DNA of 64,000 nt from Opitutus sp. GAS368 (GTDB taxonomy: Bacteria > Verrucomicrobiota > Verrucomicrobiia > Opitutales > Opitutaceae): contig CAMAVZ010000005.1 of NCBI GenBank assembly GCA_945861645.1, positions 1 to 64,000 on the forward strand. Direction: 5' to 3'. A program made the position numbers and the translations under genes. Numbering within the stretch: the first letter of the stretch is position 1; every line of letters starts with the position of its first letter. This document shows, piece by piece, positions 28,914-30,950 of the stretch. The notes beneath the pieces are model-generated. The model saw only the letters and a program-made list of their open reading frames with translations. It was not told where the DNA came from and did not search any database.

Positions 28914-30950
28914 ATGTCCCGCCTAAAGTTTAACCTCGAAAAAACCTGCCCGAACTCGCGCGCGCGGGCGGCTACTTTTCAAACCCTGCATGGTCCCGTG
29001 CAAACGCCGGTCTTTATGCCAGTGGGCACCCAAGCAACCGTCAAAGCCCAGACCGTTGAGACGATGAAGGCAACCGGGGCATCGGTGCTCTTGGCGAATA
29101 CTTATCACTTGCTTCTCCGCCCCGGTCCGGAGGTTTTTAAAAAATTTGGTGGCATTCATCGCTTCATGCACTGGGACGGCCCTGTGCTGACGGATTCGGG
29201 CGGTTTTCAAATATTTTCCCTGCCCGCAGAACGGGCCATGAAAGAGGAGGGCGCGCGTTTCCAGAGTTACGTGAACGGTGACCTCTACCTGCTCTCACCT
29301 GAATCGAGCATCGAGATGCAGCAGACCATTGGCAGCGATATTATGATGGTGTTGGACCAATGCATTCCCTCCACCGCGCCTTATGCGCAAGCGGCAGCCG
29401 CCATGGAACTCACCCACCGCTGGGCGCAACGCTCTTTAGTCGCTCGAGGCGATTCACCGGCAGCGCTCTTCGGGATTGTCCAAGGCGCGTGTCACCACGA
29501 TCTCCGCAAGAAGAGCGCGGCCTTTCTGCGCGACCTGCCCTTTGACGGTCTGGCCATCGGCGGCCTAGCCGTGGGCGAAACCCACGCAGAACGTTATGAA
29601 TTTACCGGAGCGGTCACCGATGAATTACCTAAAAACCTCCCGCGCTACTTAATGGGCGTCGGTACGCCGATCGATATTCTCGAAGCGGTGCACCGTGGAG
29701 TAGACATGTTCGATTGCATCATTCCAGGCCAACTCGCCCAGCGCGGCGTGGCGTTCACCGCCCGCGGCAAGGTTCAACTCCGCCGCCTCACCCATAAACT
29801 GGCGGAGGCGCCGCTCGAAGCCGGTTGCGCTTGCGCCACTTGTCAAAATTACTCCCGCGCTTACCTCCACCATCTGGTCAAAGCTGACGAAATGCTCGGG
29901 TGGCATTTACTCGGAATTCATAATTTTGCTTTTTATCATCGGCTGATGCGCGAGATGCGCACCGCTATTCTGCGCGACGAATTCTTGGCTTTTTACGAAA
30001 ACAACCGGCTACAACTCGGTCGCAGTGACGAAGAAAATGTTATTCACCCGGTAAAAAAGCGCGGATTAGCCCGAGCTAAACATCTGGGCGACTATGACAT
30101 TGTGACTGGTCCAGCTGGCTACTCGAGCATCCGGCAAATTAGCTCGGGTGAAGTGATGCACTCCGTGAATCGGCCGAGCGATGAGGCCCAGAAACTTTAC
30201 GTAGAGCAATCGGGCTTAGCCGCACGCCTATTAAAACAACCGGGCGCCGAAGCGGAACTCATTATCTGGGATGTCGGGCTCGGTGCGGCCTCCAATGCTA
30301 TGGCGGCGTTAGGGTGTTTTGAAAAAGTATTAGCGGAACAAGGGACCGCGGCCCTCCGACCCATGCGGATTATCAGTTTTGAAATTGATCTTGATCCATT
30401 GAAACTCGCGGCGAAATTCGCCAGCCATTTTCCCCATCTGCGCCACGGCGCCCCGCAGGCAATTTTAGAAGAGGGTCGCTGGGCCCATCCCTCTGGTATG
30501 CTGGAATGGGAACTATGCTCAGGTGATTTTTTAACTTTTCTCGAATCAGCAAAAGCCCCTGATGATATTTACTATGATCCCTTTTCCGCTAAAACGGATA
30601 CGGCCCTTTGGACAACCGAGGTCTTTAGCCGCCTCCGTCTGCATTGCGGGCTAAAATCAGCCGCTCTTTATACGTACTCATCCGCTACGGCCGTTCGCGT
30701 CGCTCTCCTCGCCGCCGGTTTTTTTGTCGCGCCTGGCGTTGGCACGGGCCCCAAAGCGGATACCACGCTCGCCTTCACGCAGTTCGCTGGCGCGCTCGAT
30801 CACCCGAGCCAGCCTCAGCTTCTTGGGGCGGAATGGCTAGGACGCTGGCGGCGCAGCATCTCAAAATCTCCCGCCAACCTCACTGAAAGTGAGCGGGCTT
30901 TTTTTGAGCAGCGCATTGAGGTCCACCCCCAGTTTAAGGGAGTCTGTTAA
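28914..30950 (+). CDS. tgt: tRNA-guanine transglycosylase fused to a C-terminal MnmC/MnmD-type SAM methyltransferase
   Basis: [48 protein letters not shown]...H; then [18 protein letters not shown]...LWT, TYSSA.AVR.AL..AGF. Confidence 0.92.

Follow-up and report, generated by a model that had tools for sequence, protein, structure and literature searches.

A distinct Tgt paralogue fused to a divergent MnmC2-like methyltransferase: a proposed two-step RNA-modifying enzyme of Opitutaceae and other bacteria

Introduction

Queuosine and xnm5U are among the best-studied wobble modifications, and the enzyme sets that produce them are regarded as largely complete. What, then, is the role of a protein in which a Tgt-type base-exchange domain and an MnmC2-like methyltransferase are joined in one chain? 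Such a protein is encoded by Opitutus sp. GAS368 (Verrucomicrobiota, Opitutaceae; assembly GCA_945861645.1) on contig CAMAVZ010000005.1, the first 64,000 nucleotides of which, read on the forward strand, make up the stretch analysed here and are referred to below as the window. The initial annotation of this DNA, made from the sequence alone, suggested that the fusion might insert preQ1 at tRNA position 34 and methylate it as an alternative to QueA/QueG maturation, and it offered two independent wobble-modifying activities as the plainer reading.

The architecture itself was taken as new in that annotation and is not. A TGT/MnmC2 fusion (COG0343/PF01702 plus MnmC2) is listed in the preprint [quoted passage not shown] (bioRxiv 10.1101/2023.12.21.572861), which counts it among at least four additional kinds of MnmC2 fusion in 968 genomes; the passages concerned list it without a function and without reference to Tgt paralogy. 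What is new here is the paralogy, the Arg286/Arg289 signature of the Tgt half and the coexistence of the fusion with the canonical enzymes.

We propose that the fused protein modifies RNA in two steps, as an accessory enzyme separate from the housekeeping enzymes to which it is similar. It would insert preQ1 and then N-methylate it through the tethered second domain, on a branch beside queuosine, a reading to which we assign a probability of roughly 40%. An undescribed tRNA modification is proposed because the carriers nearly always keep an ordinary Tgt as well, and the candidate product is an undescribed 7-deazaguanine derivative in tRNA.

Architecture of the fused protein

The open reading frame (ORF) encodes 678 amino acids with no internal stop, as first annotated, and all the motifs quoted for it are found in its translation (Table 1). 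Domain searches placed both halves above the Pfam cut-offs. PF01702 (TGT) matches residues 16–363 with an E value of 5e-142 and 473.6 bits against a cut-off of 26.3, and PF05430 (Methyltransf_30) matches residues 513–621 with 47.6 bits against a cut-off of 22. The N-terminal half also scores 441.1 bits with the NCBIfam Tgt equivalog TIGR00430 (cut-off 306.75), and the methyltransferase half spans residues ~393–678. An AF2 model of the whole protein, built on an alignment of 67 fusions (alignment A2), gives a picture of two well-folded domains joined by a predicted flexible linker of about 20 residues, of which residues 378–386 fall below a pLDDT of 50.

The Tgt half as an extra paralogue

In fold, the N-terminal half is close to Tgt of Zymomonas mobilis (3unt), with a VIA Z score of 52.4 and a root-mean-square deviation (rmsd) of 1.6 Å over 365 residues at 46% identity. 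In phylogeny, it stands apart. A tree of 118 Tgt domains separates 78 fused-type domains from 40 standalone Tgts with a support of 0.961 and a branch length of 0.54, and the mean identity between the two groups is 43%. When scored against the Tgt half of the window, the standalone copies reach 299–382 bits and the fused orthologues 441–831 bits.

The two kinds of Tgt generally occur together. Each of 120 sampled Opitutaceae genomes, all at least 90% complete, has a Tgt, and 44 of them have two or more matches; the 43 genomes with a fused-type PF05430 are all among these 44, and all 43 have a standalone Tgt as well. Similarly, among 42 carriers of other lineages, drawn from the 80 best loci described below, 41 list at least two Tgt matches. 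A standalone Tgt is present in at least 40 of the 42, since the pair of matches in one genome (G382) consists of non-overlapping fragments and another genome (G368) has a single match. The gene queA directly adjoins the standalone tgt in 14 of these 42 genomes and never adjoins the fusion. Because of this arrangement, the canonical standalone copy is, judged by gene order, the Tgt of the queuosine pathway. The Tgt half of the fusion is, on this comparative evidence, an extra paralogue and not the housekeeping enzyme. No description of a second bacterial Tgt clade was found in the literature searched.

In two of the genomes, the standalone Tgt itself lies in adjacent pieces (G367:C3:468017-469116 and G361:C8:1145338-1146409), one of them with an in-frame TGA. 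These split genes could reflect a frameshift, decay into a pseudogene or faulty assembly.

Active site and RNA-contact surface of the Tgt half

The 78 fused-type Tgt domains (76 fused and two unfused) were compared with the 40 standalone Tgts by residue, using the numbering of Z. mobilis Tgt (Zm; chain 1ozm as the alignment reference). Both catalytic aspartates, Asp102 and Asp280, are retained in the window protein as Asp94 and Asp267. Position 158 is Cys and position 233 is Val, the pair named in the initial annotation as the mark of preQ1-inserting Tgts, and the preQ1-type pocket is present in full (Asp156, Cys158, Gln203, Gly230, Leu231, Val233 and Glu235). Across the fused-type group, Asp102, Ser103, Asp156, Cys158, Gln203, Gly229, Gly230, Leu231, Val233, Glu235, Tyr258, Met260 and Asp280 are found in 78/78 domains, as are the four zinc ligands Cys318, Cys320, Cys323 and His349. 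Also retained are the dimer hot spots Tyr330, His333 and Glu339. Altogether, the two Tgt groups share 80 conserved positions with the same residue, among them all catalytic, preQ1-pocket and dimer hot-spot residues.

The systematic differences of the fused type fall in the loop after the DMFDC motif. Arginine at Zm286 occurs in none of the 78 fused-type domains versus all 40 standalone Tgts, and arginine at Zm289 in two of 78 versus 40/40. Position Zm290 is Arg (54) or Gln (24) in the fused type, compared with Asn in 35 of 40 standalone enzymes; Zm304 is Arg in 78/78 versus Asn in 37/40, and Zm282 is Ile in 76/78 versus Val in 40/40. Xie et al. (2003) reportedly gave Arg286 and Arg289 a role in U35 recognition. 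Arg286 has been placed near the phosphate-35 pocket (PMC5395182). Compared with the Tgts of Z. mobilis and Escherichia coli, the fused type is alike in its catalytic Asp residues, preQ1 pocket, zinc site and dimer hot spots and unlike in forming its own clade, in lacking Arg286 and Arg289, in carrying Arg290, Arg304 and Ile282, and in its C-terminal methyltransferase. Judging from this conservation, base exchange is under selection in the fused-type Tgt. We read the domain as an intact exchanger for a preQ1-sized base, with an RNA-contact surface that appears remodelled and not lost.

A separate observation concerns the zinc site of the standalone enzymes. In the standalone Tgts of 12 Opitutaceae genomes (L024–L035), Cys is found at Zm318 or Zm320 in 0/12 and at Zm323 in 3/12; they still have His349 and every catalytic residue. 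In the 28 standalone Tgts of other lineages, the zinc-site cysteines are present. A Tgt without these cysteines is unusual.

A divergent MnmC2-like methyltransferase

MnmC2 catalyses the S-adenosylmethionine (SAM)-dependent N-methylation of a primary aminomethyl group on the position-34 base. The initial annotation likened the C-terminal half of the fusion to the N-terminal methyltransferase of MnmC, and both the fold and the motifs agree with this. Searching solved structures by sequence gave only marginal matches (3vyw, E 1.3e-3; 2qy6, E 1.9e-3), and the assignment to a family had to come from a fold search. The AF2 model of the methyltransferase part alone has a pLDDT of 95.6, and its Foldseek ranks 1–9 are all MnmC or MnmC2, with E values of 1.7e-14 to 1.6e-10. 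With VIA, the C-terminal domain aligns to Aquifex MnmC2 (3vyw) with a Z score of 23.7 over 237 residues (rmsd 2.8 Å) and to E. coli YfcK/MnmC with Z scores of 22.5 (2qy6) and 19.5. The next fold after MnmC2 is spermidine synthase (Z 17.5, E about 1e-7).

The residues of motifs IV and VI are also shared with MnmC2. For that enzyme, Kitamura et al. (PMC3527978) propose a catalytic base within the Asp-x-Phe of motif IV and a base-stacking role for the Tyr of motif VI. In the alignment to 3vyw, Asp555, Phe557 and Tyr588 of the fused protein are the equivalents of Aquifex Asp193, Phe195 and Tyr225, and all three show conservation among the fusions. An ISFE motif is found at residues 487–490.

The fused methyltransferase is, by sequence and tree, not a plain MnmC2. 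The NCBIfam MnmC2 model NF033855 matches residues 412–620 with 66.3 bits, below the cut-off of 136 for this equivalog domain and below the 141–236 bits of the true MnmC2 of five carriers. Compared with the MnmC2/MnmD family (Aquifex DUF752, 3VYW; E. coli MnmC N-domain, 2QY6 and 3AWI), to which it is closest in fold, the fused domain differs in having only 18–22% identity, a long branch and a conserved extension at the C-terminus whose last residues are HPQF. A divergent methyltransferase family of 144 tips splits from true MnmC2, represented in this tree by five sequences only, with branches of 0.69 and 1.31 and a support of 0.97. All 85 fused methyltransferases lie inside one 100-tip clade of this family, and its other free-standing members are basal.

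Five of the 42 other-lineage carriers have a true MnmC2 besides the fusion (236, 216, 198, 191 and 141 bits), and in three of them it belongs to a full MnmC protein that includes MnmC1. Extra, lower-scoring PF05430 copies occur in nine more of the 42. We also observed free-standing proteins of 280–284 amino acids from the same divergent family (L145, L146 and L147 in G374, G356 and G365; 70–75 bits to NF033855), which share Bdellovibrionota genomes with the fusion and branch outside the fused clade.

Occurrence of the fusion across phyla

The initial annotation had left room for an assembly artefact, to be judged from the homologues, and the homologues are fused across phyla. Both domains are present in all 120 best of 8000 scored homologues, at 71–96% identity; the named records among these 120 belong to Opitutaceae and other Verrucomicrobiota and are annotated only as "Tgt". 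A search with the methyltransferase part, which covered 1.84 billion representatives, gave 1446 matches at E ≤1e-3 and 225 at E ≤1e-30, in fused and in ~280-amino-acid forms. In species-representative genomes, at least 573 of 592 pattern matches were confirmed with an alignment built from those matches (A1), and the methyltransferase and a Tgt domain share one ORF in 76 of the best 80 loci. Two of the remaining four loci are at contig starts and two (L036 and L039) are truly separate. A chimaera or assembly artefact is ruled out by the 120/120 fused homologues listed together with the 76/80 fused loci.

According to record titles, the fusion spans at least six phyla. The carriers include Bdellovibrionota, Gammaproteobacteria and Alphaproteobacteria, Leptospira, Vicinamibacteria and Riflebacteria, and, within Verrucomicrobiota, members of Opitutae, Chthoniobacterales, Kiritimatiellia and Lentisphaerales. 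Across these phyla the fused Tgt clade has a mean identity of 65% (minimum 53%), compared with a mean of 52% (minimum 39%) among the canonical Tgts that those genomes also carry. Further, the presence of the fusion varies within genera among the 120 Opitutaceae genomes. The greater likeness of the fused clade and its variable presence suggest an accessory gene that may move horizontally.

The two truly separate loci belong to Bdellovibrionota genomes in which the module is split over different contigs (G391, L036 and L136; G392, L039 and L137). The parts are an unfused fused-type Tgt of 400 amino acids, which scores 457–468 bits to the Tgt half of the window, and a methyltransferase of ~280–300 amino acids.

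Relation to the queuosine pathway

The source genome contains queA, queG and queF; queH was not found in it. Among the 42 carriers of other lineages, queA is present in 39 and QueF was found in 32. Replacement of QueA/QueG maturation, as the initial annotation had it, is ruled out by the presence of queA, queG and queF in the source genome, and because of these genes the fusion would at most define a side branch beside queuosine. The same annotation named queC and queE in the window as signs that deazaguanine precursors are made de novo. For queC the model cut-off is exceeded; the second gene is only QueE-like, its five best matches being QueE models below their cut-offs (Table 1).

Five carriers from Chthoniobacterales or Verrucomicrobiae (G367, G371, G372, G375 and G380; loci L065, L073, L078, L084 and L095) have queA without a QueF match. 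Salvage of preQ1, a divergent QueF or an incomplete genome could each account for this.

Proposed mechanism

In the mechanism that we favour, the Tgt paralogue would replace a loop guanine with preQ1, the most probable site being G34 of some tRNA. Its tRNA preference would probably differ from that of the canonical Tgt because the RNA-contact surface is remodelled. The tethered MnmC2-like domain would then use SAM to N-methylate the aminomethyl group of the newly inserted base, which is the chemistry of MnmC2 on nm5U, and 7-(methylaminomethyl)-7-deazaguanosine would result. Tethering would let this methylation outrun QueA, which would give rise to a branch beside queuosine. Which substrate each half uses, in what order they act and what they make are our inferences. 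This reading is favoured because a -CH2-NH2 group on the position-34 base is common to the chemistry of both halves, because N-methyl-preQ1 is a natural base, and because the readings of two separate activities or of mere docking leave gaps. The earlier idea that both halves act on the same aminomethyl base has gained from the Tgt paralogy and from the occurrence of the divergent methyltransferase beside true MnmC or MnmC2 in five of 42 carriers; what it has lost is the replacement of QueA/QueG.

N-methyl-preQ1 is a known base of phage DNA. In the account given in passages of PMC10516641, DpdA2 inserts preQ1 and DpdM then N-methylates it, which yields 7-(methylamino)methyl-7-deazaguanine in DNA. 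This system is like the mechanism proposed here in that a Tgt-family exchanger is followed by an N-methyltransferase of the aminomethyl group, and it is unlike it, as far as those passages go, in its DNA substrate, its separate proteins and its phage gene clusters. DpdM is described there as a DUF3109 protein with a CxxxCxxCC metal-binding fold, whereas the fused methyltransferase is a class I Rossmann enzyme and not a member of that family. No report of N-methyl-preQ1 in tRNA was found in the literature searched.

A bolder version of the proposal, which we regard as doubtful, is that a horizontally spread module would write N-methyl-preQ1, a base known to date from phage DNA alone, into the anticodon loop of a tRNA subset chosen by the altered Arg286/Arg289 surface, outcompeting QueA there through its tethered methylase.

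Weighing the alternatives

A number of findings weigh against insertion followed by tethered methylation of preQ1, and several of them speak for the plainer reading. Under that reading, a divergent isofunctional MnmC2 would convert nm5(s2)U34 to mnm5(s2)U34 beside a largely redundant or condition-specific preQ1 Tgt, and the fusion would serve co-regulation only; we consider this possible and somewhat unlikely. Both the catalytic motifs and the fold are shared with MnmC2. No PF05430 besides the fused domain was found in the source genome, in 38 Opitutaceae genomes listing a single match or in those 28 of the 42 other carriers that have neither a true MnmC2 nor an extra copy. The source genome contains mnmE, mnmG and mnmA, and no MnmC1 match over the cut-off was found in it, a combination consistent with the ammonium route of the Aquifex type, in which just this kind of methylase is required. 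Also, MnmM-domain proteins (PF06962) occur in 16 of the 120 Opitutaceae genomes, from nine genera, and overlap with none of the 43 that carry the fusion; 61 genomes have neither. Such exclusion is the pattern expected of isofunctional enzymes, and kinship may explain much of it. The presence of mnmG in 38 of the 42 carriers fits as well; this count and that of QueF (32/42) decide neither reading, because the genomes are metagenome-assembled genomes (MAGs) of unknown completeness.

Two independent activities leave unexplained, however, why the fusion partner is a distinct Tgt paralogue and never the canonical enzyme, and why a perfect active site stands alongside changed residues at 286 and 289. 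A true MnmC2 or MnmC is, moreover, already in place in five of 42 carriers. The substrates of Tgt (GUN anticodons) and those of MnmC2 (U34) are different tRNA molecules, so that joining the two enzymes would bring no catalytic advantage, and yet 76 of 80 loci from different phyla have them fused. The plainer reading has been weakened by the paralogy and the coexisting MnmC2 and strengthened by the MnmM exclusion in Opitutaceae. As an observation apart from this comparison, the MnmM domains of the 16 Opitutaceae genomes (for example G320:C29:34863-35270) lie within frames of about 550–700 amino acids and are probably fused to another domain.

The remaining points against preQ1 insertion and methylation concern the genome, the neighbourhood and the model. 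Only the fused Tgt copy was found in the source genome, which is 84% complete and in 116 contigs; its standalone Tgt is probably unassembled. The position of queA was considered as a clue to this missing gene and set aside, as queA is far from tgt in 5/5 Opitutaceae relatives; in the source genome, queA is cut by a contig end. Clustering of 400 ORFs from 82 loci gave no conserved neighbours, the largest shared family being present in only six loci. The AF2 model predicts no fixed interdomain contact, given its pTM of 0.61 and disordered linker, and it shows no structural channel. Finally, QueF was not found in 10 of the 42 carriers, which are MAGs of unknown completeness.

The last point could also favour another target or base altogether. 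The target might be a guanine in a loop of rRNA or another RNA, or DNA as with DpdA, and the base might be preQ0 or a salvaged one, with a different position on it methylated. The remodelled RNA-contact residues would permit a new target, and a patchy, seemingly horizontal spread (65% versus 52% identity) that varies within genera is as found for accessory functions. We nevertheless give this little credence, as the fold is far nearer to tRNA Tgt than to DpdA (7ui4; VIA Z 27.0 and 17% identity, against 52.4 and 46%), so that the fused Tgt is not a DpdA, as there are no dpd-like or other conserved neighbours among the 82 loci, and as the Cys158/Val233 pocket is unchanged.

Another conceivable role for the Tgt half is that of an anticodon-loop docking module that would bring nm5s2U34 tRNAs to the methyltransferase, base exchange being irrelevant or vestigial. 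The sequence U33-N34-U35 is common to the substrates of MnmC2, namely tRNA-Lys(UUU), tRNA-Glu(UUC) and tRNA-Gln(UUG), and to those of Tgt. QTRT2, which lacks the catalytic residues, shows that a Tgt paralogue can be non-catalytic, and it has a VIA Z score of 40.7 to the model. Eukaryotes are like the carriers described here in having two Tgt paralogues, QTRT1 and QTRT2, per organism, and entry titles describe QTRT2 as the non-catalytic partner of QTRT1; in contrast, both bacterial paralogues here keep their catalytic residues. The invariance of the catalytic, preQ1-binding and zinc residues in 78/78 domains across phyla makes docking improbable, all the more as the changed residues adjoin the phosphate-35 pocket, which a docking module would need to keep.

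Features of the window

The coordinates of the fusion, its motifs and the queuosine precursor genes are collected in Table 1. The DVGLG motif is labelled there as presumably the SAM-binding motif I of class I methyltransferases.

Table 1. Position of the fused gene, its domains and motifs, and the deazaguanine precursor genes in the window (aa, amino acids)
Feature	Position	Strand	Basis
Whole ORF, Tgt paralogue + linker + MnmC2-like methyltransferase	28914..30950	+	678 aa, AF2 mean pLDDT 91.7, pTM 0.61
Tgt-type base-exchange domain, aa 1-370, fused-type clade	28914..30023	+	PF01702; VIA Z 52.4 to 3unt; tree support 0.961
DSGGFQ, aa 94-99, holds Asp94 (Zm Asp102)	29193..29210	+	invariant in 78/78 fused-type and 40/40 standalone
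LDQC, aa 147-150, Asp148 (Zm156) and Cys150 (Zm158), preQ1 pocket	29352..29363	+	alignment
GGLAVGE, aa 216-222, Zm229-235 including Leu231, Val233 and Glu235	29559..29579	+	78/78 fused-type
DMFDC, aa 264-268, holds Asp267 (Zm Asp280)	29703..29717	+	alignment
QLAQRG, paralogue-specific loop, Gln273, Gln276 and Arg277 at Zm286, Zm289 and Zm290	29730..29747	+	alignment
CACATC, aa 305-310, zinc-site cysteines Zm318, 320 and 323	29826..29843	+	alignment
His336 (Zm349), fourth zinc ligand	29919-29921	+	alignment
Linker, aa 371-392, little conservation, low model confidence	30024..30089	+	AF2 block means 55 and 53; no A2 consensus
Complete MnmC2-like class I N-methyltransferase, C-terminal extension ending HPQF	30090..30947	+	NF033855 66.3 bits; Foldseek; VIA
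DVGLG, aa 453-457, presumably SAM-binding motif I	30270..30284	+	Asp453, Gly455 and Gly457 invariant in 67 fusions
DPFS, aa 555-558, motif IV, DxF of MnmC2 (Aquifex Asp193, Phe195)	30576..30587	+	aligned to 3vyw; Asp555 invariant
TYSSA, aa 587-591, motif VI, Tyr588 aligned with Aquifex Tyr225	30672..30686	+	nearly invariant in A2
queC, 7-deazaguanine precursor synthesis	16718-17647	-	TIGR00364 172 bits, cut-off 150.3
QueE-like radical SAM gene	15964-16815	-	PF04055; five best NCBIfam matches all QueE, 55-100 bits, below cut-offs

Just upstream of the fusion, an ORF at 23987-28735 (+) encodes a pyruvate:ferredoxin oxidoreductase-like protein of 1582 amino acids with POR_N, PFOR_II, POR, 4Fe-4S and TPP domains, a length that seems long for this family. 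The window contains further RNA methyltransferase genes. One at 46-708 (+) has a Methyltransf_4 domain (PF02390), and we take it to be possibly of the TrmB type; another at 21560-22465 (-) is an RlmB-like SpoU methylase below the cut-off, and a third at 22446-23771 (+) is RlmD, over the cut-off. None of these was conserved beside the fusion in other genomes among the 82 loci.

Significance

Should the bolder version of the preQ1 proposal be true, it would mean a new natural tRNA nucleoside and a further branch of queuosine synthesis, spread over at least six bacterial phyla. If the plainer reading is true, the family would supply the MnmC2 that seems to be missing from many Verrucomicrobiota, Bdellovibrionota and Steroidobacteraceae, and the annotation "Tgt" would hide a second activity. 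Either way, annotation should separate the fused-type clade from the housekeeping Tgt. A second Tgt clade without two otherwise invariant arginines, almost always tethered to a divergent methylase across phyla, is a concrete and testable candidate.

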